Positions 6,481 through 30,677 of a stretch of DNA of 64,000 bases are shown here, piece by piece (the stretch's first letter is position 1; each line of letters begins with the position of its first letter). The stretch lies in NCBI RefSeq assembly GCF_003018235.1, contig NZ_CP027437.1. The stretch is one strand, 5' to 3'. A program made the translations under genes and the position numbers. The notes beneath the pieces were generated by a model, which saw only the letters and a program-made list of their open reading frames with translations, was not told the DNA's origin and ran no database searches. Source of the stretch: Escherichia coli (GTDB taxonomy: Bacteria; Pseudomonadota; Gammaproteobacteria; Enterobacterales; Enterobacteriaceae).

Positions 6481-6930
6481 CTAATGGTTTCTCAAAAAAA
6501 TCTTTGCGTAATTAGGATTATTTAACTCTAAGTTCACCACATTAGATTTAAAATTATAAAAATCCGCATCTCTATCATCCTCTGTAACCTTTGAATCAAC
6601 CGTCGACCACACATTCGTATAAAAACTACACTCATGCTTTCCTGGCGTAATATGGTAATCTCTGGCAATTTGTACATAGTCCCCCACCTTCATTTCTCCG
6701 GGAGAGATTTTGTAATATTCCCCTTGTCCAAGGTTGTACATTACACCTGAATAACGAATCTTCTTGCCATCACATTCAACACTCAATTGATCGGAGCTCG
6801 GATATTTACCTTGAGATATGTACCTGACATCTATATATAATGGAATTTCACCATTATTTTTAACACGTACAGCAACATAAACGTCATCTTCTTTGGGTAT
6901 AACATCCACAATAACCATGTAACATGGCAT
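6481..6930 (-). CDS. Hypothetical protein downstream of vgrG; candidate immunity/partner for the VgrG C-terminal domain
   Basis: AT-rich ORF starting just after the vgrG stop; no obvious signal peptide; start codon uncertain (ATG at 6930 or 6918). Confidence 0.4.
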   Translation of the reverse strand: MPCYMVIVDVIPKEDDVYVAVRVKNNGEIPLYIDVRYISQGKYPSSDQLSVECDGKKIRYSGVMYNLGQGEYYKISPGEMKVGDYVQIARDYHITPGKHECSFYTNVWSTVDSKVTEDDRDADFYNFKSNVVNLELNNPNYAKIFLRNH

Positions 6931-6946
6931 CCATAAATTAAGCCTT

Positions 6947-9784
6947 TTATTCAAAATAACGTTCAAAGTTATAAGCACTTTGTAATGAGGCCCGCTTACC
7001 CTTTTTAGCTAGATCTATACCACCACTTCTTAAACCCTCATCAAAACTTCCGAGCACATCATAAAAATGTGACATTTCATGAATCAAAGTTATGACTTGT
7101 GAATCACGACCGTCCAGGGGATCGTCAATAAATTTATTTCCAAGATAAATGGTATGGGTATAATCTCCATCATTAACTCTTCCATGAACATTAACATCCA
7201 TAAATTCAAAATTTTGGTACTTAATCCCCTCATTAATTTCAATTTCTTTTTTTACAGCGTTTAAAATTTTATTCCTGGCTGCCTCATCATCAACACCGAA
7301 TATATTTCCAAAACGCTCTTTATCGTTATCATTCCAACGAATCAACTCATCTCTTGCTGATTTTAATTTTTTACGCTGCGCTTCAAGAACAAGTTTCATA
7401 TCATTTTCACTGATCCTTTTCTCCTCTATCATTTCATAAACAGGATTTCCATAATTATCTGTAAGAGGTTTTCCATTATATCCAATTATAGCTACTCCAT
7501 TACCCGGCCCTGATGTAGAAAAATCTCTAATTGTATTAATTTTATATTTACCATTTGCGTCACTACCGCCAGGATTCAGTGCCAAGTGAGTAGGTCCATC
7601 AAGGATGATAGTGCCGTCTGAATTCATCACGAGAGTGCTGCTTCCCACAGTCAACGTAATGTTCGTTGCCGCAGTCAAATGAATGGCACCAGATTTTGAT
7701 GTGATGGTAATATCCCCTTCGACAGTCTCCGTGCAGGTTCCCGTTTCTACCGTCACTTCGCGTTTACCCGTTTTCACCGTCAGAGACTGGTCACCTTCTG
7801 TCACAGTAATATCCCGGTTGCCTTTGATGGTTTCGGTGTGCTTACCCTCAACAAATTCTGTGCGATCGATTTTTACCGTAGATGTTTCGTTATGAATGAT
7901 GGTTTTCGTCCGATCTGCCTTTACCGTGTGTGTTTCGTTATTTTTCACGACGGTATTCAGATCTTTCTCCGCAAGAAACCTCACTTCTTCCGCACCTGTT
8001 TTATCGTCAAAGCGCAGCATGTTTCCGTTGGTCGGCCCGCCATACAGCGAGTGGCTGAATATCCCGCTCTGCGACGCCATGCCCGGCAATCCCCACGGCG
8101 GCATGGTGTCCTGGTTATAGGTGCGCCCTACAATGATCGGTAAATCCGGGTCGCCGTTTTTGAAATCCACCAGCACTTCCTGGCCGATGCGCGGGATCTG
8201 GATCATCCCGAATCCTTTCCCCGCCCACGGGTAGCTGACGCGGATCCAGCAGGAGCTGTTTTCGTCATTCTTTCCGTAACGGTCCCAGCCAAACTGGACC
8301 TTCACCCGGCCATATTTATCCGTCCAGATTTCCTGCCCCGCAGGGCCGGTGACGATGGCGCTCTGCGGGCCTTTGGTGTGGGGTTTGCTCAGGGTTCGCT
8401 GTGGGCGGTAAACTTCGCTGGTGGGATGCAGTTCAAACGTGGTGACATAGGTAAAATGCTGCTCCTGACCGCTGTGCTGCGCATTATCCCGTAAAAACAG
8501 CGTGGTCTGTACCAGTAGGTATTCCTGGTTGACCTCTGCCGTTGGATGATTCATCAGCGTAAAGGTGTAACCCGTCATGAGGGTGCGGATATGACCTGCC
8601 CCATGTGCCCGGCTGCCGGGGCTGCGCTGCGCTTCCATACGAATGCGCGTCAGCATCTCGCCTTCGCCCGTAGTGAAGTAATCACCAGGCCATTCATAAT
8701 GCTCGTATTCAGCATGACCGGTATCACGCGGACTAGCCACGGTACTTTTAAGCAGCGAACGAGGCTTCATAAAATCAAAATCGTCCATCACCCACTTTCC
8801 AGTACGTAGCCTCTCACTGGCCGTAATGGTGTGGATAAATTCCTTGTCCAGTTTCAGACCTTCCTGGTGCCACTCCACCAGTGGCGAGTCAGGGCACGCT
8901 TTATGACCATTGATGGCATCCGCCAGCACCAGCGTATGGCTGTTCTCGCTGTGCTCAAACCACCAGTAAATTCCCCACTCCTGCATCAGGCGCTGGATGA
9001 AATCAAAATCCGTTTCACCGTACTGTACCTGCCAGGCACGAGGTGGATAATTTTCCACCAGCCGTTTTTCCACCGGAAAGGAATATTCATCCAGTACTTC
9101 ATCGAGAATATCCACCACGGTTTTATTCTGGAACGCCTTGTAGTCGCTGGTATGGGTCAGCAGCTTCAGCCATGGCTCAATGCGTAATTCATACGTTACC
9201 GAACGGCCCTCATGGCCGACCACCCGCGCTGCCGTCACCAGCCCGCTGATATACCGTTTTTCGCCACCGTCCAGTTCAATACTGACGCACAGGTCTTTGC
9301 CCACCATGGGCTGAAGCGGCAGGTTGGCAGCGGGAGAAACGTAACCCAGGTTCAGGATGTCCGGCGTTTTAAGCTGTACTGTGTAGGAAAACAGATTCCC
9401 AAGTCCTTCCGAACCATTCATGCCTGCAAACAAAAGCAACTGCGGCGGCACCGCGCTACCACTTACTGTGACGTTATGCGCCCCCGGACCACCGGCTGCA
9501 AGCGACGACGCCGCATCCTGAACTGTACCAGCCATATCCGAGATCCCTACTGCAGCAGCGGCAGCCTGCGCAGCAGTTACTGCAGCTTTAACCAGACCTG
9601 ACGGTTCCGGCAACGCACCAAACAGGTCCGCCGCGGCCTGTTCTGCCATCTCCTCGGCGGCACCAGATACATCGGTTACGGCTGAACTGGCGCTTACAGC
9701 ACTACTTTCTCCGGCTATCGGTGGCGTGGAGATAGCTGGCCCACCGTTACTGCCAGATTTATTACTCGTAGATACAAAACTCAT
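6947..9784 (-). CDS. vgrG: VgrG (TssI) spike protein, 'evolved' type, with an AT-rich C-terminal extension containing an HExxH motif
   Basis: 945 aa. gp27-like region ([25 protein letters not shown]), gp5 OB-fold and beta-helix repeats (VKVQFGWD..., TVKxxR repeats). C-terminal about 180 aa is low GC and contains LIHEMSHF. Good SD (AAAGGA) upstream of the ATG at 9784. Confidence 0.9.
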
Positions 9785-9808: not shown

Positions 9809-10180
9809 TTAGAATTTAGCGCCCGGCGGCCAGAAAAAATAAGAAATAACCCGCCACTGTCCATCTTTATAATGAAAAAAACATGTCAGATTTAAATCCC
9901 CCCGCAAATGCCAAAACATTTCTTTGATGGGAATATTTCTGAATTTAGGATTTGTTGAGCGATAGGTGTTTTCAATTTCTATATAATACTCACCGACAAA
10001 TTTATAACGAGGATTTATAAATTCATACGCTGGCTGACCATAGTTATTTAATAGAACATTCTCTTCAACTCCATTATACACACCACTCGCATTCAGATAA
10101 GCATGCCCAGGAATATCAGACATGCTATTTTTCGCCCCACCCACTATCAAAAAAATTACCACAGCGTATATTAGTTTCAT
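9809..10180 (-). CDS. Hypothetical exported protein (N-terminal hydrophobic signal/anchor); candidate immunity protein for the upstream HExxH protein
   Basis: 123 aa, N-terminus MKLIYAVVIFLIVGGAKNS; AT-rich; its start overlaps the stop of the upstream ORF by 4 bp. Confidence 0.45.
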   Translation of the reverse strand: MKLIYAVVIFLIVGGAKNSMSDIPGHAYLNASGVYNGVEENVLLNNYGQPAYEFINPRYKFVGEYYIEIENTYRSTNPKFRNIPIKEMFWHLRGDLNLTCFFHYKDGQWRVISYFFWPPGAKF

Positions 10181-10917
10181 TTTTTTACGCTTTTCACAAA
10201 AAAATTAGAACCCGGAACCATTCTATTTAACCGCTCAATGACATTTCCCATATAACGAGAGCGCAGTTCCATACCAATATTCATTAACGCACTGGCGTCC
10301 CCGGAGAATGGTGTAGTTGCTTTATCTGCATCATCACTATAGTATTCATCAGCAAGATATCCAATAATATGCCCAAGCTCGTGAGACAGCCCTATTTGCT
10401 CATGGCAAACTTTTGATGAGCCAAGACATTTAGCTGCTGCAACTATATCTTTAGAGTCAAGTTCAACGTATCGACTATTCCAGACAATGGAACTCTGTCG
10501 AAAACTATTTGGATCATCATTATCAATTTTAAACACCACCACATCCCAATACCCATGACGATCAGTCTGAATTATTTCTATTGAGAAAGATAAATCCTTA
10601 CCATTAAACTTACTGGCAAACTCAGACTTCCCAGAAACGGATAAAAAAATCTTATTATTCCATGTTTGATTAATGACAAAAATAACTTCCCCATGAAAGG
10701 TATTTTTCTCCAAATCTGTCCAGTCAGTTTTTGCATCCCATCTTTTTATCCAATTATATTTCCATCTCAGCAACAATGAGATTGCACCATTTTCACGGTC
10801 AATTCTTAAATCTCCCCAGGCATCATTGTCCCTGAAATATCGTTTATCCAGCATTAAGTCGTCATAAGCATCGTATGCCTGCTGAATAGCCTCATCATGA
10901 GAGTTACCCATGATCAC
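10177..10917 (-). CDS. Hypothetical protein with HExxH zinc-metallopeptidase motif (SHELGHIIGYLADEY); candidate T6SS effector
   Basis: 246-aa AT-rich ORF between tagF and vgrG; HELGH motif followed by Gly and acidic residues; no signal peptide. Confidence 0.5.
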   Translation of the reverse strand: MIMGNSHDEAIQQAYDAYDDLMLDKRYFRDNDAWGDLRIDRENGAISLLLRWKYNWIKRWDAKTDWTDLEKNTFHGEVIFVINQTWNNKIFLSVSGKSEFASKFNGKDLSFSIEIIQTDRHGYWDVVVFKIDNDDPNSFRQSSIVWNSRYVELDSKDIVAAAKCLGSSKVCHEQIGLSHELGHIIGYLADEYYSDDADKATTPFSGDASALMNIGMELRSRYMGNVIERLNRMVPGSNFFVKSVKK

Positions 10918-11102: not shown

Positions 11103-11834
11103 TTATTTTTTCTCCAGTCGCAAAGCATCCACATACCGCCCTTCGCTGTTCTGCTGCCAGAACCAGCCCTGCCCCTGCTGCGCCTGCGTCAGCATTTTGT
11201 CCGGCCAGCCCGGCCACGGCAGGTGGCGCACACCGGGCAGTTCCACTACCGGCGCATCCGGCAGCCCGGTGAGTTCCCGGCTACGCTGCGGCACACGTCG
11301 TAGGCCGCGCAGCCATTGCGTCCAGCGCTGCCCCGGTCGCCACATCGCCCAGAGCTGGTCGGCCTGCTCTGCCAGTCGCCCGCGCCGTTCCGCCTGTGGT
11401 GCAACCTGCGCCGCCACCAGCCGCGCCAGCCAGTACAGCCAGCCCTGTGTGTCATCCAGGCTCTCTTCCAGCCATTCCCGCCCGGCACACTGGTAAATCA
11501 CCAGTGGCCACGGCCTGCCCGTACTGTCACGCGAGGCGGTCAGTACCCCGGTCAGCCACTCATCGCGCCCACCAATGGGTAAAAATCCCGGCGATAAAAC
11601 AAAGCTCCACGGTAGCGGATGGTGTTCCGGCACCGCCGTTTTCTCGCGCGGTGACAGATGCATCCAACCGTCAGTTACTCCGGTCTTCGCAGCATCCGTT
11701 CCTTCCGGCAGAACAATATGCCGCCCCTGTCCCAGCCACGTCTGCTGGTTCAGCCACGCCTGCCACACCTGCCCTTCGTTCGCACTCACCCGCCAGCGCA
11801 CATAGTCCCGCTGGTCCGGCAGTCTGCCGAACAT
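11103..11834 (-). CDS. tagF: TagF-like (DUF2094) T6SS accessory protein
   Basis: Directly downstream of tssM; N-terminus MFGRLPDQRDYV fits the FGKLPxxGDF pattern of TagF/ImpM. Start chosen at the internal Met to avoid overlapping tssM. Confidence 0.6.
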   Translation of the reverse strand: MFGRLPDQRDYVRWRVSANEGQVWQAWLNQQTWLGQGRHIVLPEGTDAAKTGVTDGWMHLSPREKTAVPEHHPLPWSFVLSPGFLPIGGRDEWLTGVLTASRDSTGRPWPLVIYQCAGREWLEESLDDTQGWLYWLARLVAAQVAPQAERRGRLAEQADQLWAMWRPGQRWTQWLRGLRRVPQRSRELTGLPDAPVVELPGVRHLPWPGWPDKMLTQAQQGQGWFWQQNSEGRYVDALRLEKK

Positions 11835-11863: not shown

Positions 11864-14800
11864 TCACAGCGCTCGCTCCGGGCAGGCGAAGCGTTGCAAT
11901 AGTCCGCGATCCACTGGGTCAAAATCCCGTCCGGCGGTGATTTCCAGTATCACCCGCCGACCATCAAAGCTGTACTCCACCTGCTGTGTTCCCCGTACCG
12001 CCGTTTCTTGCGCTTTTCCCGCATCCAGCAGGTGAAACAGCGCCCACGGTCCATTAGTCAGCAGCGTCGAGGTGTCCTGGCGGATGCGCGGGCTGGCGGT
12101 TATTTCCGCCATTGAGCCGTTGCGCGGACCCGGCCAGTTAACTTTCAGCGGCCTGACCGGGCCGTGAGCGTAACGCAGTACCTGGCCGTCAATGTCAATC
12201 ACCAGTTCGGTGATGGCCGGGTCCATATCCACGACGCGGACCTGCATCGCCCATGAGAACTTTTTCCCTCCGTCGCCGTTAAAAAACACGCTGCGGATCT
12301 GTTTCGCCTCCTGAAACGGCGTCAGGTCCGGCCCCTGTAAGGTCATGTTGCCTTCGGTCGGTTTGTAGCGCCACGGATTGCTGGCGGTGTCCGCCTGTGG
12401 GGCCAGTTGCTTCGTCCAGAAGGCATCCAGCACGCCGCCGCTGGCAAAGATACGGTTAAAATCGTCCGCGCTGACCTCCTGCGGGCTGTCGGTGAAGGGG
12501 TAGCGCCCGTCGATGGCGTCGCGGCACTCATCACCGATCACCGCTTCCATCTGCGCGTTCAGCACTTCACCGGTGCCGGCGTTGATTTTTCGCGTTCCCT
12601 GCTGCGTGAGATCCAGCAGAATATTTTTCAGCGGCGCGGGCAGTTTTGCCGCCTCCAGTTGCAGTTTATCCGCCGCAGAAATGCGCCCCGGCAGAGTGCT
12701 CGCAGCCAGCGCACTGTCGGCAATGGTGAGCTGAGTGTAATACTCATTGAGCATCGTCAGCAGCGAATTTAATTGCGGCACGCCGCCGCCCTGCCCGCTG
12801 TCCGTCCGCCCGGAAACCACTTCCCGCAGGGCGGCGAAGCGGTCTTCCACCAGTGATTTTTCCAGCCGCTCTTCCGGGTGAATGTCCTGCAACAGCTTCG
12901 CCGTCTGCACCGCTTTTCCCGCATTGCCGGAGAGCCGGTCCTGCGCGCGCTGGGCCATCTGCTTTTGTCTGGCCTGCGCATCCAGAGGCGGCACCAGCGT
13001 GGTCTGCACCACCACCGCTTTACTCAGGCGCATCAGCGGGGAATCCGGCGAGGCCAGAGTGCGGAGCACCTGAAGGTCATACGCTAGTCCAGGGCTACCG
13101 TCCTCCCCGGCGCTGTTGATGCTGTGAATGCTTGCCAGAAAATCCTGCCATCGGCGAGCATATTCAGCCAGGTACAGACGACGTACCTCACGGGTAACCG
13201 GGAGTTCCTGCCCCGGTAGCTGACTCATCACAATATCAGTCGTTTTTTTTTGCGCACTTTCCCGGCCCATCACCCAGGCGTCGTCCGCTGATGCGGCGGC
13301 GACAAACTCCGACAGCCGTTTGTCGAACAGTTCCCGGTAGCCTTCGCGGGTGAAGATGCCGGGCACGCCCCTGTCCAGCGGCGCGCCATCCGTGCGGACA
13401 AAAACCGTTCCCGCATCCGCGCCCACAGCGCGAACCAGCGAAAACTCCTGCGGTGCTTCGCTCTCCATGGAAGCCAGGGCTCGAGTGTAGATACGCTCAG
13501 TGCTGTTATGGCCGTCAAGGAAGGCCCGCGCCTGGCGGATCAGCCCCTCATCTTTTTCCCAGGGCGAATGCACCACGCGGCTGCCGTCAAACAGGGCGTC
13601 AATATGCTCCAGCACGGCTGCGCGACCGCCAAACTCCGCTACGCTGTCGCGGTTGTCCAGATCGTTCAGCACCCAGGCGTGGATCTCCGCCGCGTTGTAT
13701 TTGTCCTCGTGGTCCTTATCGAGGTTCAGCAGCAGATAAACATGCAGGGCGTCATAGGCGGCTTTGCTGTCCTGACGCGCAATCGCATCTGAAAGCACGT
13801 ATTCCATTCGTTTCACCAGCGGAGGGAGCAGTAGCTGGTCCAGCAGGCGGTCATACAGGGATGCGACACTCTCCATCACCGGCGGGACGCTGTAAAGACC
13901 ATAACGCCAGGCCAGCGGCGGCGAGTCCGGGTCCATCCCCGGCCAGGCAGAGAGCGCCCGCGCCTGATTCAGCAGGGCCGGAACAGGCTGCATAGCAGGT
14001 TTTCCGGTATAGGCTTTGACATCACCATCCAGTTGGGTCGTCCGGCTGGCGATTTCATTCAGATAACCGCTGTTACCCTGCTGGCTACCCTGCATTCCCT
14101 GCCACAACCAGAAAACCAGCGCCAATACCAGCAGATGCCCGCCGGTACGCAGCAGGCGATAACGCCAGGCCCATTGAAGATTCGGCTCCACCAGGTGCGC
14201 TTCGCGGAAGATAAACCGCGTCAGTAGATCGTGCAGGAAATAGCTGCGGTTGCCGTCCGGCAGGGTATGGGATGGGGAATCTGCCTTCCCTTTGATCGCC
14301 CGGACAAAACGCTGCCAGATGCCTGTCTGATCGGCCACCGCGTCTGCCTGCGCCTGCGCGGCACTGGTGAAAAATACGCCGCGCAGGGTGTTGTTAAGCT
14401 GGGTAGCATCAAATTTTGAATCGAGGAAAATCTGTTCAATAGCTTCCAGCAGCGGCGCGCCCAGCGCGGCAAATTCACGCGGGAAGCGGTAGAGCCGCTG
14501 ACGGCTTTTAAGGTCGTACTCTTCCTGCAACCGGGTATCCAGCCCCTGATCCAGCCGCTGTGTCAGGTTTGCCAGTTCCCGGCCACAGAGCGCATGCAGC
14601 GACTGCGGATCGCTGGCGTGACGCCTGCGGCTGTAAGGCAGGGTGAAGCCCCAGACCTGGGCTCGCAGGTGACTGGTCAACCCACGGAAATACTCCGTAA
14701 AGCCCGGCAGCAGATCCATCTTGGTGACAACCAGATAGACCGGAAAACGAATGCCCAGCGTCTCCCGCAGTTCCGCCAGCCGCGCACGCAGAGCTGCACA

Positions 14801-15730
14801 GGCAGCCAGCCGTTCCGCCGGGGACTGCGCGGTCAGATCCGCCACGTTCAGCGTCAGGATCACGCCGTTGAGCGGTGCGCCTGGGCGGTGTTTACGCAGC
14901 AGCCCCAGAAACCCCTGCCATTCCCCGGCGTTACGCTGGGTCGCGCTGATTTCGCCGCCGTCATCGTGTCGGGCATAGCGCCCGGCGGTATCAATAAGCA
15001 CTGCTTCGTTGGTAAACCACCAGTCGCAGTGCAGCGTGCCGCCGCCCGGCACGGTGAGGATATGCGCGGTCTGCTCCATCTGCTCCGCCAGCGGAAACTG
15101 TAGCCCGGTGTTAAGCAGCGCAGTGGTTTTACCATCGCCGGGGCTGCCGATAACCATAAACCACGGCAGTTCGTACAGAAAACGCTTTCCTTCCAGGACT
15201 TTTCGCCAGCCAGGAAGATCCACACGCAGTTGTTTCAGTTGCCGGATGGCGCGGCTGACAATATGGCTGACGGTACGCAGGTCGGCTTTAATTTCCCCTG
15301 CCACAGGTACGTCTTCCCCACGCGGATGCAGGAAACGGCGCAGCAGTTGTTCATCCAGACGCAGCGCCCGCCACAGCCGGTACAGGCCATACAGAGCATA
15401 AGTCAGCAGGATCAGACCGATAAGCGTCAGACGCAGCCACAGCGGCGCAAATGGATGAACATCACCGAGGGACAGCAGGGGTGAAACAAAACCGATGACC
15501 AGGCACAGAACCGTCACGCCAATGATGCTCATCGACCAGTTAACCAGCCACAGTGCGAGGAACATCAGTAACAGAACGATGGTGACTACCCGACTTCCCA
15601 CGGACGCGAGCGGATGCAGGGTGTCAAACGCCACCAGCGGCCCAACAAACCAGACCAGCAACGCCAGCATCACCACGCCAACAATGGCCAGCGCGCGGCG
15701 GGAAAACAGCATACTGAGAAATTTTTGCAT
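11864..15730 (-). CDS. tssM: TssM (IcmF-like) T6SS membrane complex protein
   Basis: 1288 aa; N-terminal TM helices; Walker A GSPGDGKTT; large periplasmic C-terminal domain. Confidence 0.9.
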   Translation of the reverse strand: MQKFLSMLFSRRALAIVGVVMLALLVWFVGPLVAFDTLHPLASVGSRVVTIVLLLMFLALWLVNWSMSIIGVTVLCLVIGFVSPLLSLGDVHPFAPLWLRLTLIGLILLTYALYGLYRLWRALRLDEQLLRRFLHPRGEDVPVAGEIKADLRTVSHIVSRAIRQLKQLRVDLPGWRKVLEGKRFLYELPWFMVIGSPGDGKTTALLNTGLQFPLAEQMEQTAHILTVPGGGTLHCDWWFTNEAVLIDTAGRYARHDDGGEISATQRNAGEWQGFLGLLRKHRPGAPLNGVILTLNVADLTAQSPAERLAACAALRARLAELRETLGIRFPVYLVVTKMDLLPGFTEYFRGLTSHLRAQVWGFTLPYSRRRHASDPQSLHALCGRELANLTQRLDQGLDTRLQEEYDLKSRQRLYRFPREFAALGAPLLEAIEQIFLDSKFDATQLNNTLRGVFFTSAAQAQADAVADQTGIWQRFVRAIKGKADSPSHTLPDGNRSYFLHDLLTRFIFREAHLVEPNLQWAWRYRLLRTGGHLLVLALVFWLWQGMQGSQQGNSGYLNEIASRTTQLDGDVKAYTGKPAMQPVPALLNQARALSAWPGMDPDSPPLAWRYGLYSVPPVMESVASLYDRLLDQLLLPPLVKRMEYVLSDAIARQDSKAAYDALHVYLLLNLDKDHEDKYNAAEIHAWVLNDLDNRDSVAEFGGRAAVLEHIDALFDGSRVVHSPWEKDEGLIRQARAFLDGHNSTERIYTRALASMESEAPQEFSLVRAVGADAGTVFVRTDGAPLDRGVPGIFTREGYRELFDKRLSEFVAAASADDAWVMGRESAQKKTTDIVMSQLPGQELPVTREVRRLYLAEYARRWQDFLASIHSINSAGEDGSPGLAYDLQVLRTLASPDSPLMRLSKAVVVQTTLVPPLDAQARQKQMAQRAQDRLSGNAGKAVQTAKLLQDIHPEERLEKSLVEDRFAALREVVSGRTDSGQGGGVPQLNSLLTMLNEYYTQLTIADSALAASTLPGRISAADKLQLEAAKLPAPLKNILLDLTQQGTRKINAGTGEVLNAQMEAVIGDECRDAIDGRYPFTDSPQEVSADDFNRIFASGGVLDAFWTKQLAPQADTASNPWRYKPTEGNMTLQGPDLTPFQEAKQIRSVFFNGDGGKKFSWAMQVRVVDMDPAITELVIDIDGQVLRYAHGPVRPLKVNWPGPRNGSMAEITASPRIRQDTSTLLTNGPWALFHLLDAGKAQETAVRGTQQVEYSFDGRRVILEITAGRDFDPVDRGLLQRFACPERAL

Positions 15731-16057: not shown

Positions 16058-16513
16058 TCAAAATTCTCTGGATAGAATAATATAGCCATTGAATCTTACG
16101 GAACACTCATTTTCATTAATAAGGCCGGATGCAATAACAACATCTTTCCCCCTGTCATTGTTAATATAGGTATATTTTGCCACAATAGACTTAGCATGAT
16201 TTTCATAGTAGCTATCAAAATACGATTTTTCATCTAACATTGCCTTCTTATTTCTGGCTTTGTCCTTCTCATAATCAATCTTAGCCAGAGACTCTGCATA
16301 AAACTTAGACACAGGAGAAACATCAAGAACTTCTACCCTTGTTTTATCTCTTAAAATAGTAGAAGAATTTATATTCAAATCACTTTTCATTGCATCAAAT
16401 AACGACAACTCTATTGAGGCTCCAACCGTAGCGCAACCATCATTTTGTGCATATGAAATTGCAGGTATGCCAGCTAACAGGCAGATTATTACCTTGAACA
16501 TATTAGTCCTCAA
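16058..16513 (-). CDS. Periplasmic protein, candidate Tldi1-like immunity protein
   Basis: 151 aa with signal peptide (MFKVIICLLAGIPAISYAQ); AT-rich; overlaps the upstream effector-like gene. Confidence 0.5.
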   Translation of the reverse strand: MRTNMFKVIICLLAGIPAISYAQNDGCATVGASIELSLFDAMKSDLNINSSTILRDKTRVEVLDVSPVSKFYAESLAKIDYEKDKARNKKAMLDEKSYFDSYYENHAKSIVAKYTYINNDRGKDVVIASGLINENECSVRFNGYIILSREF

Positions 16514-16871
16514 CCACTAATATTTTATCAGTACTGGCAGCAATAACCTTGCGATAAGGTAAATCCAGAATTATACAGCCATCAGAGGCTTCTCCTGGAT
16601 GGGCTGAACTCTCTCCGTGTATCATGAAACCGTCACGCCCGCACATTTGATTTTCGGGGTAAGGCGTGAGCCTCATCGTCCATGCTCTTGTTCTTGCATG
16701 AAAAAATGCAGGTCCAATTGTATATGAACCTCTTGGCAATGGTCCCTTATCTCTTACACACTCATTAACAGAGTCATCTTTAAAACCCGGTCTGCCAGAA
16801 TATCTGGCATTGAACTGATAGCTACCATTTAAATAAAATGAACGTGCATTAATTTTGTATACCCAAGGCAT
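16503..16871 (-). CDS. Tlde1-like (DUF2778, L,D-transpeptidase-fold) candidate T6SS effector
   Basis: 122 aa; motif IHGESSAHPGEASDGCIIL (His ... x14 ... Gly-Cys) resembles the L,D-transpeptidase/Tlde1 catalytic motif; AT-rich; followed by a signal-peptide protein. Confidence 0.5.
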   Translation of the reverse strand: MPWVYKINARSFYLNGSYQFNARYSGRPGFKDDSVNECVRDKGPLPRGSYTIGPAFFHARTRAWTMRLTPYPENQMCGRDGFMIHGESSAHPGEASDGCIILDLPYRKVIAASTDKILVVED

Positions 16872-16962: not shown

Positions 16963-18279
16963 TCACTCCACCACCAGAATTTCCACCCGACGGTTCTGCG
17001 CCCGTCCGGTTTTAGTGCGGTTATCGGCCACCGGTACGGTATCTCCTTTCCCGACAACCCGGATCCGGCTGGCCGGAATACCACCGGACGTCAGCAGTGA
17101 AGCCACTTCCGCCGCCCGTTTTTCCGACAATACCTGGTTGGACGGGAATTCAGCGGAGTGGATCGGCTGGCTGTCCGTGTGGCCGGTCACCGTCACCGCG
17201 CCCCCCACACGCGCAATCTCACGCGCGGCCTTGTCAATCACCGGGCGCAGCGCATCATTCACGGTTTTCTGCCCCGGTATAAACATCGTATCGCCACGAA
17301 AGATTACACGGCTGTGATGGTCATCTTCCTCCACCGTCAGCAGGCCACGGGCGATTTCGTTCGCCAGCAGGATTTTCAGCCGCAGTTTATGCACTGGAAC
17401 GGGTGGCGGCGGTAGATTTTTACCAATGGCGTCGATACGCTGTTGTACGGTTTCGGTGGCGAGGTTCATCCGGTGGCTGTAAAGGCCAAACAGCGTCAGC
17501 ATCACCAGCAGGGCGATTCCGGCGCTCAGCCAGACCGGCACCCGGCGCATCCGCCGCATTCGCCCACTGACGGCACCGGCAAAACCCGGCGAGAGCGTCG
17601 GCGTGATCGGATCGCGACGCTGGACCAGTTGAGTCAGCAGTTGCTGGCGGATATCGTCCAGTTGTTTACGCCCGTCAGGCCGTACACTGTAGCGGCCTTC
17701 AAAACCCAGTCCCAGAATGTGGTAAATGATTTCCAGTACATCGCTGTGCTCCTGGAAGCTGGCGGCCAGACGCCCGATTATCTGAAACAGCTTGATGCCG
17801 CCTTCACTTTCGCCATGAAAAGTCACCAGCAGGCTCTTCCCGGCCCAGACACCGCGTCGCCCCCAGACGGTGTTGTTGGCAGCTTCATCCAGCGCCGTGC
17901 ACACGCAGTAACGTACCGCCAGCACATGTTCGCGGCGCAGGTTTGCCTGGTCGCACAGCGTCTGATACCGGCGGACTTCACGCTCCAGTAGGGCGCGATA
18001 ATGTTCGACAAAACCAGGGGAAAGTTCACGGGGCATTTGCGCCAGCGCGCATAACAGAGGGCTGGCCGCCGCCAGAAGAGGATTCACAGCAGCAGTGATC
18101 TCAGCCAAGCGGAGCTTCAAATCTGGCCCGTCTTCAACCACCACCTTTATATCTTCCCTGCGAAGGCTGTCCTGGACGAGCGTATCGTAACCGTCATTAT
18201 CAGGCGACCTTGTTCCCCTTATTGAAGGCTGTAATTGCAGGGTATTCACCGCAGGTTGCGTCAGAATATCGTCGGTCAT
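16963..18279 (-). CDS. tssL: TssL (DotU-like) fused to a C-terminal OmpA/MotB-type peptidoglycan-binding domain
   Basis: 438 aa; central TM segment; C-terminus ...VTGHTDSQ...SEKRAAEVASLL...NRRVEILV is a typical OmpA-like motif. Confidence 0.85.
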   Translation of the reverse strand: MTDDILTQPAVNTLQLQPSIRGTRSPDNDGYDTLVQDSLRREDIKVVVEDGPDLKLRLAEITAAVNPLLAAASPLLCALAQMPRELSPGFVEHYRALLEREVRRYQTLCDQANLRREHVLAVRYCVCTALDEAANNTVWGRRGVWAGKSLLVTFHGESEGGIKLFQIIGRLAASFQEHSDVLEIIYHILGLGFEGRYSVRPDGRKQLDDIRQQLLTQLVQRRDPITPTLSPGFAGAVSGRMRRMRRVPVWLSAGIALLVMLTLFGLYSHRMNLATETVQQRIDAIGKNLPPPPVPVHKLRLKILLANEIARGLLTVEEDDHHSRVIFRGDTMFIPGQKTVNDALRPVIDKAAREIARVGGAVTVTGHTDSQPIHSAEFPSNQVLSEKRAAEVASLLTSGGIPASRIRVVGKGDTVPVADNRTKTGRAQNRRVEILVVE

Positions 18280-19619
18280 TTATCGCGAACTCCCCACAGC
18301 TCCAGCTCCAGCCCTGGAAACTCTCCGGCGGTATGCATTGCCATGCCACCATAGCGGGCGATATGTTCCCACAACACGCCGTCGCGGCGGATGTCGTAAT
18401 AGATGTAACCGGACTGGAACGGGATCTGACGCGGTGGCACTGGCAGCATCTGTAGAACAAGACCAGGAAGGTGCGAGCGAATCAGTTCCGGCAGGCGTTC
18501 TGACGGCCCTATTTTGGTCTGAGCCGAAAAATGTTGTAGTAAGGTGTCGGCGGACATCTGTGCCTTCACCGCCAATACTAACGAGCTGAAATCTGACAGT
18601 TCGGTAGGTTCAACCACCGCATTGAGAATACCGTAAGTTCCCTCTTCCAGAGGGATTCGCTGCGCCCCACGTATTAGCACAGCATTCAGCAGATACTGAA
18701 CCTCGTCCACCACCGATTTCAGCCCGGCATAGGGCGTCAGGTGCTTATATTCTTTATATTCTTCCGGACGACGTGTTTGCGGACGCACGTAGGTAGAGAG
18801 TTCTCCGGCCAGTGCGCAGAGGTTACGATAGAGTACTTCAGGCGATAGCGGCGTTTTCGACATATGGATCAATAAGGGGCCGAAACGATTAAGAACTTGC
18901 AGAAGCAGGTAATCCGACACTTCCGCCGCTTCATGACCGTGTTTGTCGCTCCCCGTCAATCGTTCCGCCAGCGAATCTGCACGCATTTTTATCAGATCGT
19001 TAATCCACGACAGCCAGGTACATATCAGCGTACTGGCCTGGTAGTTCGCCACTGGCGGGATCAACTCTTTGTCTATATCGACCCGACCATCGGGATGCAG
19101 CGCCGTGATGCGCGTCAGCGGCAGGCCGATCCACGCGTCTGTCACCGCCTTTTCCGGTAACAGTCGCAAGCGCAGGTGGCTAAGTTGCAGCAGTTGCGCG
19201 CCTCGCCCCAGCGAATTGGCATCACGGATTTCACTTTCATGTACCGAAAAACGTGCCAGTGATTCAGGGTTATTGTCGAAACTGGTTTCTTCACTGTTCG
19301 GCGTACGTATTGGCACAGCCAGATAAATCAACTGGTTAAGATGTTCTGGAAGGATGGTCAGAGGCGGCGGGAGTGGTGTATGACCCGGCGCATTAAAAGG
19401 TGTACCGTCAGCAAATACCCCGGAAGCCTTCGTAAGTACCAGTTTTCCGATGTTCAGCGCCTCACTACCAATACCATACTCATTGAAGCCCCAGTAAAAA
19501 GGTGAAAGAGGCAAACTGCGATAATGAATGACATGTTCCAGATAGCGTTCCTGCTGCTGAAACATCTGTGGCAACAAAAATTGTCCTTCACTCCAGACCA
19601 CCCGGTTATTCCAACTCAT
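18276..19619 (-). CDS. tssK: TssK baseplate protein
   Basis: 447 aa; N-terminus MSWNNRVVWSEGQFLLPQMFQQQ is characteristic of TssK. Confidence 0.9.
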   Translation of the reverse strand: MSWNNRVVWSEGQFLLPQMFQQQERYLEHVIHYRSLPLSPFYWGFNEYGIGSEALNIGKLVLTKASGVFADGTPFNAPGHTPLPPPLTILPEHLNQLIYLAVPIRTPNSEETSFDNNPESLARFSVHESEIRDANSLGRGAQLLQLSHLRLRLLPEKAVTDAWIGLPLTRITALHPDGRVDIDKELIPPVANYQASTLICTWLSWINDLIKMRADSLAERLTGSDKHGHEAAEVSDYLLLQVLNRFGPLLIHMSKTPLSPEVLYRNLCALAGELSTYVRPQTRRPEEYKEYKHLTPYAGLKSVVDEVQYLLNAVLIRGAQRIPLEEGTYGILNAVVEPTELSDFSSLVLAVKAQMSADTLLQHFSAQTKIGPSERLPELIRSHLPGLVLQMLPVPPRQIPFQSGYIYYDIRRDGVLWEHIARYGGMAMHTAGEFPGLELELWGVRDK

Positions 19620-19622
19620 AAT

Positions 19623-20156
19623 TTACTCATCCCGTTCTTTAATCACTATGGCGCTTTGCTCTATGCCAGCATCCAGTTCGACTTTTTTCTTTGGCATAAA
19701 GCGGCTGTACCAACTTTTTTCCGGTGGATCAGGAATTTTATATGTAGCCCGCCAGACCGATTTTCCCAGATTGCGGTATCCGGCGAGGATCCCCAGCGTG
19801 GTAGTTTCCTTATTGAGGGCGCGGCGTAATTTTTTCTCCTCGCCCGGACGCAGGATAAAGCTGTCGCGGTGGAGTAAATCATCGGCAAGAACAGCCTTGT
19901 CATTGTCCTGAAGGGACCACCAGTCCGCCGCCGTGAAAGCTGCATCAATTTTCAGTTCATAAACGCGTATCTCTATGGGCGCGGCTTTTTTCTGATTGTC
20001 AGGATTCATCTTATCGGAAGCCTTAATCACCAGATCGAGTCTTTGTGACATCAGGTCCGGCACGTCGTCGCTGTCAATGCTGCACCCGGAAAGCAGGAAG
20101 ACAAAAGACAAAGCTACCGCACATAACCACCCACCGGGGTTACGCCATTTATTCAC
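19623..20156 (-). CDS. tssJ: TssJ outer-membrane lipoprotein
   Basis: Lipobox LLSGC; start proposed at the GTG preceded by AAGGAA (MNKWRNPGGWLCAVALSFVFLLSGC...). Confidence 0.8.
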   Translation of the reverse strand: MNKWRNPGGWLCAVALSFVFLLSGCSIDSDDVPDLMSQRLDLVIKASDKMNPDNQKKAAPIEIRVYELKIDAAFTAADWWSLQDNDKAVLADDLLHRDSFILRPGEEKKLRRALNKETTTLGILAGYRNLGKSVWRATYKIPDPPEKSWYSRFMPKKKVELDAGIEQSAIVIKERDE

Positions 20157-20223
20157 TTTAATTTCCTTTAAAATCAAATAATAAAAACCGGCCAAGCTAT
20201 ATACCTGGCCGGGAAAATGTTGC

Positions 20224-23872: not shown

Positions 23873-24163
23873 TTAAAAATCATACGCAGAGAGTATTTTT
23901 ATAATCTCTTTGTTTTCTTTGTACTTTTCCCGAAGCACAGGGAGTGATTTCTTCGCCGGAGGACACCAGGTATCAACCCCCTTTTCGATGTCTCTTTTAT
24001 CCTTCTTTGGTAAAGAACTGTCCCATTCACCAGCAAGATGCTGGCACATTTCCGCATTACTCAGAAAATGCTGCACATCCTGTGGTAAAGGCGGTTCCCC
24101 CTGAACACAGAAAGCGAACATCATTAACAGGAATGTCAACAACATCGGATAACGAAATGTCAT
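23873..24163 (-). CDS. Small exported protein, candidate immunity protein for the adjacent zinc peptidase
   Basis: 96 aa; N-terminal signal peptide (MLLTFLLMMFAFCVQG); starts 3 bp after the upstream ORF stop. Confidence 0.45.
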   Translation of the reverse strand: MTFRYPMLLTFLLMMFAFCVQGEPPLPQDVQHFLSNAEMCQHLAGEWDSSLPKKDKRDIEKGVDTWCPPAKKSLPVLREKYKENKEIIKILSAYDF

Positions 24164-24165
24164 AC

Positions 24166-24729
24166 TTAATGTCCATCAATTGACCAGTGAGGTATATCTG
24201 TATTGCCGCCAACAAATTTTCTGACGCCGTAACCCAGACCTACCGCCTGAAGCTGGGCATTCATTCCGGTTCGAGGTAGTGTATTAATTGCAACATTCTG
24301 ACCATTGCTCCCCGCAATTGTTAATGTTCCGCTCCAACTGATATTCATATCTATCGCAGTACCGCGTGTATGGTTGGAGCTCAGTGCAGGCGCGACATTC
24401 AGATTATTCATACCATAGGCCGTAACCATAGCCTGCGCCGCTTCAAGCGAGGCTTGCTCAGTCGGGTGAACCCACTCAATATCCATCCCCTCCATCGCCG
24501 GGACGTTTTTTGCCTGAACGATTTCATGAGCAATCAACCATGACCAGTGCATGAGATATGCTCTGGCGGGAGGGCGATATGTTGCAGAGATACTGACCCT
24601 TGCACGCGCATTACCAAGCGCGCGCAAAAAATTATCTACCGATGCACGAAAAGTCCCCTGCAAATCATTAGTGGAAGAACTTCCAGGAAAGCGACTGACC
24701 CACAGTGCGCCACTTAATTCTTTTGCCAT
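24166..24729 (-). CDS. LAS/M15-type zinc peptidase-like protein (H-x6-D ... D-x2-H); candidate peptidoglycan-targeting T6SS effector
   Basis: 187 aa; SSNHTRGTAIDMN (SxHxxGxAxD-like) and TDIPHW motifs; no signal peptide; sits between clpV and tssB with a downstream signal-peptide ORF. Confidence 0.5.
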   Translation of the reverse strand: MAKELSGALWVSRFPGSSSTNDLQGTFRASVDNFLRALGNARARVSISATYRPPARAYLMHWSWLIAHEIVQAKNVPAMEGMDIEWVHPTEQASLEAAQAMVTAYGMNNLNVAPALSSNHTRGTAIDMNISWSGTLTIAGSNGQNVAINTLPRTGMNAQLQAVGLGYGVRKFVGGNTDIPHWSIDGH

Positions 24730-24741
24730 AAGGATGCTCCA

Positions 24742-26223
24742 TTAATCCGTTTCAAAAATAATCTGTTCATCCTCATCAACACGAATGCGGATTTGCGTGA
24801 TGGCCGTTTTCTCTGTCATCGCCTGCAACCAATAACGGGACAGTTGTGGGAGGATATGTTGTTCGATATAGCCGATGAGCAAACGAGCGCCGGTTTCGTG
24901 CATCGGGCAGCGCGACACAATATGCGTAATCAGTTCATCGCCATACACCAGTGAAACGCCATGCTGCTCCGCCATCCGATCCATCAATCTGCCAAGATGC
25001 AGGCGGGCAATAACACCACGCGCGGTCTCATCCAGCGGTAAATAAGGAATAACCGTCACACGCCCCAGGAAAGCCGCCGGGAAGTGTTTACGTAACTCCG
25101 GCATTAACGCCTCTTTTAGTCCTGCCGAATCAGGCATCAGCGCCGGATCCTTTTCGATATGGCGTTTGTACTCGCTCCAAGTGGTTGCGCCGATGGTGCG
25201 CAGGGTGCCACGCGCCAGCGCCGGTTTCAGCAGGTTGGCAGCATCCCCCGTACCGGATGTACCACCAGCGCCCACCAGCGTGTGAACTTCATCAACAAAA
25301 AGGATTACCGGCTGCGGCGAGCGCGCGGCCTCTTCTAGCAACGCTTTCAGGCGGGATTCAAATTCACCCTTCATGGACGCCCCAGCCAGCAGCGCTCCAA
25401 CATCCAGTGACAGCAACCGCACGTTACGCAGTGAAGGCGGTACTTCCCCCCCGGCAATCGCCAGCGCGAATCCTTCCACCACTGCCGTTTTCCCGACTCC
25501 CGCTTCGCCGGTCAGTAGCGGGTTGTTCTGGCGACGGCGCAGCAGAATATCCGTCATAGTACGGATCTCGTGTTCGCGACCGGTGACCGGATCGATATTG
25601 CCTTCACGGGCCAGCGCAGTCATGTCCTGGCAGTATTTCGCCAGCGCGGATTTGCTTCCGGTTGATTCGCCGGCAAAGACCTGGCTAGCTTCCCCCGGTA
25701 CTGCAGAATTTAAATCCGAGCCGTCATAAGGCATTTCTGTTAATTCAGGAGATGAAGTGATTAAAGACGGAAGAATATCTAATAGTTCATCTACCGGTAG
25801 CTCTGCCAATGGCGCACAAATATTTTTTAACACCCGACACAATTCTGGCGTGGTTAACCAGGCAAGTAATAACCATCCACTACGAATTTTTTTATCGCCA
25901 AAGCGGATACTTGCCAACATCCAGGCTTTTTCAACAGAAAGATCGATATGATGGGAAAAATCGTTAATTACACTCGCTCCGGCAGGCAATATATTCAATT
26001 GCTGAATTAACGCCTTCTCAACATCAGCAGATGTTATTTGATAATGTCGAAGCACATTGTGAATGTCATTCTCTGGTTGTTGTATTAACTGATGCAACCA
26101 ATGCGTCAGTTCGACATAAGGATTAGCGCGTAATTTACAGAACGTCGTCGCAGATTCCAAAGATCTAAACAAAGATTTGGTTAGCTTTCCATACAGTGCA
26201 CTGCGCGAAACAGGAGTGTCCAT
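24742..26223 (-). CDS. clpV: ClpV (TssH) AAA+ ATPase with an apparent in-frame internal deletion (N-domain plus first ATPase domain joined to the C-terminal small domain)
   Basis: 493 aa against about 850-900 expected. Walker A GEAGVGKT and Walker B ILFVDEVH of the first domain run to ...IEKDPAL, joined directly to ...[24 protein letters not shown]...GARLL..., the ClpB/ClpV C-terminal signature. Confidence 0.8.
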
Positions 26224-26555: not shown

Positions 26556-27470
26556 ATGAAACCAAATATTACGTGGGGACTCCAAAAAATACAGGCGCAC
26601 GGGATCGCCGATAACACAATTTACGCGACTGAAGGAACCCAAATTATCTTCACCGTTACCTCACCCTGGATTCCTGTTTTTGAGGTGAATGATGATGTAA
26701 AGATTGCCCTCAGTCTGACCCGCCACGAAGAAGCATGGTGGATTATCAATCAGTCTACCGAATATTGCTGTACGGTAAACGACCAGATTGTGGAACCTCA
26801 TCACCGTATGCGTCTGAATGAAGGCGATCTGATAGAATGGGGGTTATCTTCATGGTGCCTTGTGCACGGCAATCCATCATCTCCGGACCTGAGCGCAGTA
26901 AATACGACATCGCAGACTGCCACCATGTCGGAAACAATAACCGAATATCTGGATCTGGATTGGTTCAGGCAGCAGCATCTGACATCACAAAATCCATTCG
27001 ATATCATTCCTGTTCATGGAGCCTCCTCCACTGGAGAAGATGCTAAAAAAGAAAATGCCCTGACTCGACTTTATCAGGAATACCGCGAGGCGTTGTTATC
27101 TCCTGAACAAGATCTTCATCGCCATGCTGATCCTTTTCCCTTTAACGAAGAGCCCTCCTCACAGGATCTGGATTCATTGCGTGATCTGGTCACTGAAGCC
27201 GAGACATTGCAGGATATGGTCACTGGCGGGTTAAGCATTGACGCTATTCTCGATGTCCTGGACGCCACCGGCGAAGGGGAAACCGCCTGGCCTGCCGAAA
27301 AGACGCCCCCAGATATCCTGCACCTGCTATCCCCGGAATGCGCACCGGAAACAGCGCATAACACCGTTCTACCCGACCTGACACGCAAAGAGCATCGCAT
27401 CATTGGCATTGACAGCCATTATCGGATAAACCCGGCACAACACGGAGAGATATCTCATGACAAACAATAA
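26556..27470 (+). CDS. T6SS-associated protein, possibly FHA-domain (TagH-like)
   Basis: 304 aa; first gene of the plus-strand operon; N-terminal region has a weak FHA-like pattern; C-terminal half is acidic and low complexity. Confidence 0.4.
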   Translation: MKPNITWGLQKIQAHGIADNTIYATEGTQIIFTVTSPWIPVFEVNDDVKIALSLTRHEEAWWIINQSTEYCCTVNDQIVEPHHRMRLNEGDLIEWGLSSWCLVHGNPSSPDLSAVNTTSQTATMSETITEYLDLDWFRQQHLTSQNPFDIIPVHGASSTGEDAKKENALTRLYQEYREALLSPEQDLHRHADPFPFNEEPSSQDLDSLRDLVTEAETLQDMVTGGLSIDAILDVLDATGEGETAWPAEKTPPDILHLLSPECAPETAHNTVLPDLTRKEHRIIGIDSHYRINPAQHGEISHDKQ

Positions 27471-28793: not shown

Positions 28794-30677
28794 ATGGATC
28801 CACGGCTACTGGAATACTACAACCGCGAACTGAGCTATCTGCGGGAAACGGGAGCCGAATTTGCCGCCCGTCATCCTAAAGTCGCCGCCCGACTGGGTAT
28901 GCAGGGAACGGATATTGCCGATCCGTATGTGGAGCGAATGGTCGAGGCCTTCAGCTTCCTGACCGCCCGCACGCAGCTAAAAATTGACGCTGAATTCCCC
29001 CGTTTCACCCAGCGTCTGCTGGAAGTGGTCAGCCCCAATTACGTCACACCCACGCCCTCAATGAGCGTGGCGCAGCTTCATCCCGATCCGGAAGAAGGCG
29101 ATCTGGCGAAGGGATTCACCGTCCCGCGCAACACGGCCTTTTTTTCCGCCATTCCGGAAGGCGAAAGTACCGCCTGCCAGTTTCGTAGCAGCCAGAATGT
29201 GACGCTGTGGCCACTTGCCATCGAAGAGGTGCGGCTGACCGCCGCGCCGCCGGATATGCCTGCCCTGCACCGCTACCTGCCAGCCAACATTCACGTCGCT
29301 GGTGCGCTGCGTATTACCCTGCGCACCTTTGGTGAACTGACGTTCAGTCAGCTTGCAGGGCTGAACAAGCTGCCATTTTATCTCTGCGGCGAGGAGCGCA
29401 CGGCCTCACACCTGTTCGAACTACTGCATACCAGCGCCATCGCGAGCCTGGCTGGCATTCCGGGGCATTTTGACGGCGCACTGGATGTGAATCTGAAACA
29501 GCCCGTTATGTACGAAGGCCTGGATCCGGATCAGGGACTGTTGCCGCTGGCGTGGAATGTGTTTCACGGCCATAACCTGCTACATGAATATTTTACCTGT
29601 CCGGAACGCTTCTTTTTTTTCACCCCGACAGGCCTGTCTGCCGGGTTACAGAAAATTAACGGCGGCGTGGCGGAGATTGTTATCCTGCTGAACCGCCTGC
29701 CGCCGGACTGGCTGATCCACCAGACAAACGCGGCACAGTTCAGCCTGTTCTGTACCCCAGTTATCAACCTGTTTCCCCGCGTCGCCGCCCGGATCGATGT
29801 CACGCACAGCACGACGGAACAGCATCTGGTGGTGGACAGAACCCATCCGCTGGATTATGAGGTGTTCTCGGTCCAGGAAGTGGAAGGGCTGGAAACTGAC
29901 ACCACACGGAAGATGGCCTTTCGCCCGCTCTACCACACCCGCAATAATGATGAAGGCAATCACGGACGTTATTTTTCCCTGCGCCGGGAGCCGCGCCGGT
30001 TGTCGGAAAATGCCCGCCGCTATGGCACCCGCACCTCCTATACAGGATCAGAAGTGTTCCTGTCGCTGGTTGACCAGTATGAAGCGCCGTACCCGGAAAA
30101 TCTGCGCCATATCACCATCACGGCTATGGTCACCAACCGCGATCTGCCCTGTCTTATTGCCCGCAATGGACGGGACGATCTGACCGTGGATGCGGCCATC
30201 CCGGTGGCGGGCGTGGGGCTTATCCGTCCGCCGCGTCCGCCGCAGCCTCCGCTGGCTGAACGTGAAATGGCCTGGCGGTTGATCCGCCAGTTATCCTTTA
30301 ACTATCTGCCGCTGGCCGATCTGGATCACCGTACCGGTGGTCAGGCGCTGCGCGATCTGCTTAACCTGTTTATTCCGGCGCATGACAGTCCGCAGTCGCG
30401 CCAGGTGCGCAGCCTGATTGGCTGCAACACCACCCCGGTCACCCGCCGTCTGCCCGGTTCCGGGCTGCTGGTCTATGGGCGCGGCGTCAGTTGTGAACTG
30501 ACCGTGGATGAGGAGGGGTTCTCCGGTATCAGTCCGTATCTGTTCGGTCTGGTGTTGGAGCACTATATCGCCCGTCATGTTTCCATTAATACCTTCTCGC
30601 AGATGACGCTGCACAGCATGCAGCGCGGCAAAATTATGACCTGGCCTGCCAGGGCGGGACAGCGGGGAAGCGTATGA
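28794..30677 (+). CDS. tssF: TssF baseplate protein
   Basis: 627 aa; MDPRLLEYYNRELSYLRETGAEFAARHPKVAARLG is a typical TssF N-terminus. Confidence 0.92.
   Translation: MDPRLLEYYNRELSYLRETGAEFAARHPKVAARLGMQGTDIADPYVERMVEAFSFLTARTQLKIDAEFPRFTQRLLEVVSPNYVTPTPSMSVAQLHPDPEEGDLAKGFTVPRNTAFFSAIPEGESTACQFRSSQNVTLWPLAIEEVRLTAAPPDMPALHRYLPANIHVAGALRITLRTFGELTFSQLAGLNKLPFYLCGEERTASHLFELLHTSAIASLAGIPGHFDGALDVNLKQPVMYEGLDPDQGLLPLAWNVFHGHNLLHEYFTCPERFFFFTPTGLSAGLQKINGGVAEIVILLNRLPPDWLIHQTNAAQFSLFCTPVINLFPRVAARIDVTHSTTEQHLVVDRTHPLDYEVFSVQEVEGLETDTTRKMAFRPLYHTRNNDEGNHGRYFSLRREPRRLSENARRYGTRTSYTGSEVFLSLVDQYEAPYPENLRHITITAMVTNRDLPCLIARNGRDDLTVDAAIPVAGVGLIRPPRPPQPPLAEREMAWRLIRQLSFNYLPLADLDHRTGGQALRDLLNLFIPAHDSPQSRQVRSLIGCNTTPVTRRLPGSGLLVYGRGVSCELTVDEEGFSGISPYLFGLVLEHYIARHVSINTFSQMTLHSMQRGKIMTWPARAGQRGSV

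Follow-up and report, generated by a model that had tools for sequence, protein, structure and literature searches.

In many type VI secretion systems (T6SSs), the inner-membrane subunit TssL is fused to an OmpA-family domain, a form known in the literature as “evolved” or “specialized” TssL (PMC8253398; PMC3426401; PMC3953482). This architecture has been described since 2009-2010; a curated NCBIfam model covers it, structures have been solved (4B62, 6AEO), and RefSeq assigns its name automatically. In other systems the cell-wall anchor is a separate protein; for one such anchor, TagL, both wall binding and its need for secretion have been shown (PMC8253398). Here we describe tssL in a 64,000-nucleotide stretch of Escherichia coli DNA (assembly GCF_003018235.1, contig NZ_CP027437.1; hereafter the window), where the gene occupies 16963..18279 on the minus strand within a T6SS cluster. 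Its product is an ordinary, already catalogued long-form TssL. This is the textbook reading with nothing new in it, and its importance beyond correct annotation is slight.

The gene, stop codon included, is a 438-amino-acid (aa), ATG-initiated open reading frame (ORF) lying exactly where the first-pass annotation had placed it without giving the strand, and its start overlaps the stop of upstream tssK in an ATGA junction. The full-length subfamily model NF005999 covers aa 22-438 (654.3 bits, cut-off 571), TIGR03350 (“type_VI_ompA”; TssL, long form) matches aa 300-436 over model positions 1-137 of 137 (164.6 bits, cut-off 139.8), and the DotU/TssL family model TIGR03349 scores 214 bits (cut-off 89.95). 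The short-form signature is absent, NF038239 (T6SS_TssL_short) reaching 47 bits, below its cut-off of 180. An identical protein is present in NCBI, and in E. coli relatives, too, RefSeq gives the 1317-bp gene the name “tssL: type VI secretion system protein TssL, long form”. One of the 438 residues is changed in the ortholog of strain HCP5S3_I2, and a stretch of ~4 kb around tssL shares 99.4-99.6% DNA identity with several E. coli chromosomes.

Since the best-studied E. coli system, Sci-1 of enteroaggregative E. coli (EAEC), has a short TssL and a separate anchor, we considered whether the fusion could be an artefact, with a frameshift, misassembly, or read-through joining a short tssL to a downstream OmpA-family gene. 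No support for this was found. The same 438-aa sequence, named “TssL, long form [Escherichia coli]”, is present on 62 independent contigs (NCBI, UniRef, ENA), and complete genomes carry the 1317-bp gene. A search of 5.8 billion proteins (E<1e-5) returned 1793 homologs, and among the best 120 of these, whose domain content was checked, 114 contain the DotU domain (PF09850) and the OmpA domain (PF00691) together; each of the other six aligns to just 57-88% of the query. These best matches range over Escherichia, Citrobacter, Enterobacter, Snodgrassella, Burkholderia, Paraburkholderia, Variovorax, and others (Enterobacteriaceae, Burkholderiaceae, Comamonadaceae), and homologs that match it in length and architecture occur across the Beta- and Gammaproteobacteria. 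The contig count, the architecture of the homologs, and the coverage of aa 22-438 by NF005999 in a single stretch refute an assembly or frameshift artefact, to which we assign practically no probability.

The order of parts proposed in the first-pass annotation, an OmpA-family region following DotU and membrane-spanning regions, was borne out. The DotU domain spans aa 67-269 (17473..18081, minus strand; PF09850, E=2e-60, 204.4 bits vs. a gathering score of 27) and comprises a predicted cytoplasmic helical bundle and a transmembrane (TM) segment; beside TIGR03349, it is matched in a sequence search of the PDB by 4V3I (VCA0115; E=2.5e-23, aa 66-278), which from its locus tag we take to be TssL of Vibrio cholerae. 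An AlphaFold2 model built from the homolog alignment (mean predicted local distance difference test score, pLDDT, 74.5) contains a helical DotU bundle at aa 54-221 and a continuous TM helix at aa 249-288. Preceding the bundle is an N-terminal extension (aa 1-53; 18121..18279, minus strand), predicted to be cytoplasmic and disordered and poorly conserved: aa 1-49 have pLDDT <50, and the region is variable in the homolog alignment.

Between the DotU and OmpA domains, Kyte-Doolittle analysis gives a single hydrophobic segment at about aa 247-268 (17476..17541, minus strand), with its peak at VPVWLSAGIALLVMLTLFG and a maximum of 2.08 centred on aa 256. The string RMRRMRR before it is a positive-inside signal, and together with the helix of the AlphaFold2 model predicts one TM helix oriented N-in/C-out. 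It is followed by a putative periplasmic linker (aa 269-299; 17383..17475, minus strand) that contains the Pro-rich LPPPPVPV, has low pLDDT at aa 291-293, and varies in length in the alignment. A cytoplasmic DotU domain and a periplasmic C-terminus have been measured for EAEC TssL (PMC3426401), and the topology of the long-form TssL of Agrobacterium tumefaciens has likewise been established by experiment (PMC3953482). By analogy with these homologs, the DotU domain of the E. coli protein is expected in the cytoplasm and its C-terminal domain in the periplasm.

A Pfam search of the C-terminal region, proposed in the first-pass annotation, detected PF00691 at aa 332-430 (16990-17286, minus strand) over model positions 1-98 of 98 (E=6.2e-17, 62.2 bits vs. 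a gathering cut-off of 27.2), entirely within the last 120 aa. For this domain and for DotU alike, such E-values lie well outside what chance would give. The strings on which that annotation had relied, SEKRAAEV and NRRVEILV, lie at aa 385-392 and aa 429-436. The whole predicted periplasmic domain, taken as the TIGR03350 span (aa 300-436; 16972..17382, minus strand), is of the MotB/PomB type. The best PDB sequence match of the C-terminal part is 4B62, Pseudomonas aeruginosa TssL1 (E=1.8e-25, aa 288-436); PomB/MotB-type domains come next, and there are further matches to 6AEO (the periplasmic domain of a TssL) and to 7BBA (E=3.3e-10), whose deposited name is “Putative type VI secretion protein” and which is presumably the entry for TagL's peptidoglycan-binding domain (PGBD). 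Over aa 301-436 the protein reaches 112 bits with the NCBIfam model MotD, and PomB is matched more strongly than 7BBA or the OmpA/Pal domains of Acinetobacter baumannii. In the AlphaFold2 model this part folds as β-α-β-α-β-α-β over aa 314-437 (pLDDT 82-92). Foldseek gives a TM-score of 0.92, a root-mean-square deviation of 1.6 Å, and 41% identity to 4B62, returns PomBc5 (3WPW) as its top match (E=1.7e-12, TM-score 0.86), and reports a probability of 1.00 to the 4B62, PomB, MotB, YfiB, OprF, and OmpA domains.

The predicted binding residues for peptidoglycan and its meso-diaminopimelate (DAP) are Asp369 in GHTD and the motif N-x2-L-S-x2-R-A-x2-V-x3-L at aa 381-396, that is, Asn381, Leu384, Ser385, Arg388, Ala389, Val392, and Leu396 (17092..17175, minus strand). 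In an alignment of 30 diverse long-form homologs with 48-93% identity to the query, Asp369, Asn381, Leu384, Ser385, Arg388, and Ala389 are invariant (30 of 30), Val392 and Leu396 are at least 90% conserved, and Asn429-Arg430-Arg431-Val432 are also invariant. The first six correspond, by shared motif and not by structural superposition, to Asp486, Asn494, Leu497, Ser498, Arg501, and Ala502 of TagL, which contact DAP or are required for wall binding (PMC8253398). These data support an intact peptidoglycan-binding module at the C-terminus, with binding predicted by homology.

Conservation of the domain extends beyond this pocket. Upstream of the Pfam core, aa 300-333 are conserved as strongly as the binding motif, and Arg300, Leu301, Leu304, Leu305, Glu308, Ile309, Val316, Glu318, Ser323, Phe327, Gly329, Asp330, Met332, and Phe333 are invariant in the 30 homologs. 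Such a pattern could be expected if the OmpA-like domain were kept mainly as a periplasmic protein-protein module, for instance to contact TssM or TssJ or to recruit Hcp, rather than as a wall anchor. However, every residue equivalent to the wall-binding residues of TagL and the DAP contacts of OmpA/Pal is unchanged in homologs down to 48% identity, a pattern difficult to account for without selection for DAP binding, and the closest solved structure (4B62) was deposited as a T6SS cell wall anchor. We therefore consider a mainly interactive role very improbable.

The same upstream segment invites a more speculative reading, in which the anchor is gated in the manner of MotB/PomB and binds the wall just once TssJLM has assembled. 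In flagellar stators, the region matching aa 300-333 rearranges, and peptidoglycan is engaged only after incorporation into the motor. The domain of the E. coli protein is nearer to the stator PGBDs than to TagL, OmpA, or Pal in both sequence and predicted fold, and its stator-like N-terminal segment is as invariant as the binding pocket. We think gating of this kind unlikely; if it were true, wall engagement by long-form TssL would be a regulated step.

On the sequence and model evidence, the gene very probably encodes a canonical long-form TssL, the DotU-family inner-membrane subunit of the TssJLM complex, with a fused wall anchor. In the mechanism we propose, the N-terminal helical DotU domain would lie in the cytoplasm, where it would dock the baseplate and bind TssM; one TM helix would cross the inner membrane, and the Pro-rich linker would carry the MotB/PomB-type OmpA-family domain into the periplasm. 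There, Asp369, Asn381, Leu384, and Arg388 would bind the DAP of peptidoglycan stem peptides non-covalently, and this hold on the wall would fix the membrane complex so that sheath contraction can be withstood. The cluster would neither need nor contain a TagL, TagN, or TagP because the anchor is fused to TssL. By analogy with homologs, E. coli TssL is likely to bind peptidoglycan and to require this binding for secretion.

Several points weigh against this assignment. A literature search gave no experiment on this TssL or on its orthologs in systems of the Salmonella pathogenicity island 6 (SPI-6) type, and tssH of the same cluster, which encodes ClpV, lacks 384 codons that include the D2 AAA core. 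In addition, the periplasmic domain of A. tumefaciens TssL may also join in Hcp recruitment (PMC3953482), so anchoring may not be the sole role of the domain.

Pfam was run on 28 ORFs of the cluster and its flanks, followed by a permissive re-scan of those left unannotated. No TagL-, TagN-, or TagP-like protein was found in the cluster or elsewhere in the window, and no other OmpA, LysM, SPOR, or PG_binding domain was detected in any sizeable cluster ORF. A six-frame tblastn search of the 64 kb with the TssL C-terminal domain gave nothing else, the next best match having E=2. The arrangement of the TagL (SciZ) type, in which the cluster encodes a separate polytopic membrane protein whose C-terminal part is a PGBD, is thus not found within the window. 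The other cell-wall-related domains of the window belong to effector enzymes and to the housekeeping protein MltD (SLT and LysM domains; 35910..37268), which lies outside the island. Since neither a TagL/TagN/TagP-like protein nor a second OmpA domain occurs in the 64 kb, sequence analysis supports the interpretation offered in the first-pass annotation, namely that anchoring is built into TssL and not supplied by a separate TagL-like protein. For annotators, this means that no TagL-like accessory anchor is to be sought at the tssL locus.

A 187-aa ORF (24166..24729, minus strand) was considered as a possible anchor and rejected. Neither an OmpA match nor a significant match to a PDB sequence was obtained for it; it shows only weak peptidase_M15/VanX-type matches and an SxHxxGxAxD (LAS/M15-like) motif. 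A frameshifted copy adjoining tssH in strain 06-00048 bears the RefSeq name “peptidoglycan-binding domain-containing protein”, which looks misleading for this ORF. After it, between tssH and tssB, follows a 96-aa ORF with a signal-peptide-like N-terminus (23873..24163, minus strand). In SPI-6, variable region 1 (VR1) between tssH and tssB holds a candidate effector/immunity pair with a ChiX-like L-Ala-D-Glu endopeptidase (PMC10469887). The 187-aa and 96-aa ORFs are more likely a ChiX-like candidate effector/immunity pair than an anchor.

The T6SS core set is complete around tssL, with tssA, B, C, E, F, G, H, hcp, vgrG, and PAAR-Rhs all in the window, and every core gene except tssH is an intact ORF, tssL included. 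On the minus strand, in coordinate order, lie the genes for PAAR-Rhs, a DcrB-like protein, VgrG, and TagF, tssM, and a Tlde1-family effector with its immunity gene, and then tssL, tssK, tssJ, hcp, Tai4/Tae4, tssC, tssB, two small ORFs, and tssH; tagK, tagJ, tssE, tssF, tssG, and tssA are on the plus strand. The order of transcription around tssL is tssJ-tssK-tssL, two small genes, and tssM. The baseplate gene tssK (18276..19619, minus strand; PF05936, E=3.6e-135; TIGR03353) is translationally coupled to tssL by the ATGA overlap. The remaining TssJLM components are tssJ, encoding the outer-membrane lipoprotein (19623..20195, minus strand; PF12790, E=1.3e-35; RefSeq annotation of the orthologous locus), and tssM, encoding the IcmF-family inner-membrane partner of TssL (11864..15730, minus strand; PF14331, PF06761, and PF06744; RefSeq annotation).

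The island ends at tRNA-Asp (aspV; 32858-32934), adjoining dnaQ, and beyond it lies the E. coli core genome (rnhA, yafS, gloB, mltD, the rrnH operon, and others), which 5424 of the 5426 complete E. coli genomes match at 95-99.5% identity. The cluster is a SPI-6-like T6SS inserted at the tRNA-Asp (aspV) site of the E. coli chromosome. Within tssF, ARAGORN predicts a 94-nt “tRNA-His” (30460..30553, plus strand), almost certainly a false positive.

The damaged gene, tssH (24742..26223, minus strand), encodes a ClpV of 493 aa. E. coli relatives have a further 1152 bp (384 codons) that is missing here, an in-frame loss between two copies of a direct repeat of 13 bp, with the junction at 25137-25149. 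The truncated protein scores 577 bits against TIGR03345 (cut-off 885), the first stretch that aligns stopping at position 338 of the 852 in the model, and Pfam leaves the D2 AAA core unmatched, recognizing of D2 just the D2-small domain (aa 397-472). An artefact of the window was rejected as the cause, the exact 493-aa product being present on at least 24 public contigs; among the complete E. coli genomes that match best, none has the deletion. E. coli MEI003, whose cluster is intact, combines the same tssL with a full-length tssH. A ClpV without the D2 AAA core means that the T6SS served by TssL may be compromised in this lineage of E. coli. The deletion leaves the identity of TssL unchanged.

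It does bear on present-day function, and tssL in this strain might be a functionless remnant of a decaying T6SS. The size of the tssH deletion, the sub-threshold TIGR03345 score, and the unmatched D2 ATPase core are consistent with this, as is decay in the related E. coli locus of strain HCP5S3_I2, where Hcp has an internal stop and insertion sequence (IS) elements disrupt tagK. Against it, the other core genes in the window are intact, TssL is nearly identical to its HCP5S3_I2 ortholog, and the deleted tssH allele is in frame and recurs on public contigs. In some T6SSs, firing also does not strictly depend on ClpV. We regard loss of function in this strain as possible but doubtful, a question separate from the identification of the gene as a long-form tssL.

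Directly downstream of tssL lie two small genes. The first encodes a 122-aa Tlde1-domain protein (16503..16871, minus strand; PF10908, E=1e-12, with a weak YkuD match), and the second a signal-peptide protein of about 147-151 aa (16058..16513, minus strand), an immunity candidate. The sizes of the two products match those of the SPI-6 candidate module NCTC7406_04082/04081 (PMC10469887). The size match and the position suggest a candidate effector modifying peptidoglycan stem peptides, encoded between tssL and tssM.

VgrG (6947..9784, minus strand; 945 aa) has a C-terminal extension at aa 819-944 with a sub-threshold match to the Aspzincin_M35 metallopeptidase family (28.5 bits vs. a gathering score of 30). 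VgrG of a related E. coli locus, L001, has just 737 aa, and the longer protein in the window is possibly an “evolved” VgrG that carries a protease domain as effector. Also near vgrG are two uncharacterised ORFs, of 165 aa (6481..6978) and 246 aa (10177..10917), the latter with weak metallopeptidase matches. Between its tagF-like gene and vgrG, L001 (14124-15114) has ~1 kb more than the window (~11113-11223). The extra DNA encodes a glucosaminidase-domain protein and a small hypothetical protein, both absent from the window and probably a Tge-type effector/immunity pair. This difference, together with the internal Hcp stop and the IS elements in tagK that the related locus also has, indicates that effector content and integrity of the island vary between strains.

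TagK (26556..27470, plus strand) matches NF033418 with 552 bits and gives a near-threshold match to the FHA domain (19.6 vs. 20.7 bits), and the disordered N-terminal extension of TssL (aa 1-53) contains several Thr residues. Pfam scans found no kinase or phosphatase (PpkA/PppA) among the window ORFs, so a TagK-TssL contact resembling that between Fha and TssL in A. tumefaciens is speculative.

Among described proteins, TssL1 of the P. aeruginosa H1-T6SS (4B62, “the cell wall anchor of the T6SS”) is like the E. coli protein in its fused C-terminal PGBD, with 41% identity over the periplasmic domain, and in the pattern GH(T/S)D...PSN-x2-LS-x2-RA-x2-V, with an Asp-to-Asn spacing of 12 in both. 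It differs in T6SS lineage and host. The H1-T6SS cluster carries the PpkA/PppA/Fha1 phosphorylation pathway. TssL of A. tumefaciens (ImpK, Atu4333), the prototype “evolved TssL”, is longer (501 aa vs. 438 aa in E. coli), and its N-terminal Thr14 is phosphorylated by PpkA and then bound by Fha (PMC3953482). In contrast, the N-terminal extension of the E. coli protein is not conserved with it, and PpkA is absent from the window.

EAEC TssL is a short form of ~217 aa. According to the literature, its TM segment (aa 183-208) lies at the extreme C-terminus. In EAEC Sci-1, as predicted here, TssJLM is tethered to peptidoglycan by an OmpA/Pal/MotB-family domain with the motif N-x2-L-S-x2-R-A (PMC8253398), but the anchor, TagL (SciZ), is a separate polytopic protein with three TM segments that binds the C-tail-anchored TssL. 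The Asp-to-Asn spacing is 8 in TagL and 12 in the E. coli long-form TssL, whose domain matches PomB/MotB (E about 3e-15) better than it does 7BBA (E=3.3e-10). The stator subunits MotB, PomB, and MotS (e.g., 3WPW) share the periplasmic domain; unlike TssL, they have a short N-terminus instead of DotU and belong to a flagellar locus and not to a T6SS context.

The aspV-site E. coli T6SS is therefore classed with SPI-6-type systems and not with the EAEC Sci-1 (TssL + TagL) type. It resembles Salmonella SPI-6 in gene content and in its effector modules: Tae4/Tai4 after tssC, PAAR-Rhs, the Tlde1-family effector (122 aa) together with an immunity protein of 147 aa that has a signal peptide, and, between tssH and tssB, the ChiX-like candidate. 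The 90% cluster that contains E. coli TssL also has a 438-aa member recorded from Salmonella enterica. A review of Salmonella T6SSs (PMC12288458) nowhere mentions TssL or TagL. The locus described here differs from SPI-6 in its E. coli host, in the location of the Tlde1-like module between tssL and tssM, and in the ClpV deletion specific to this lineage.

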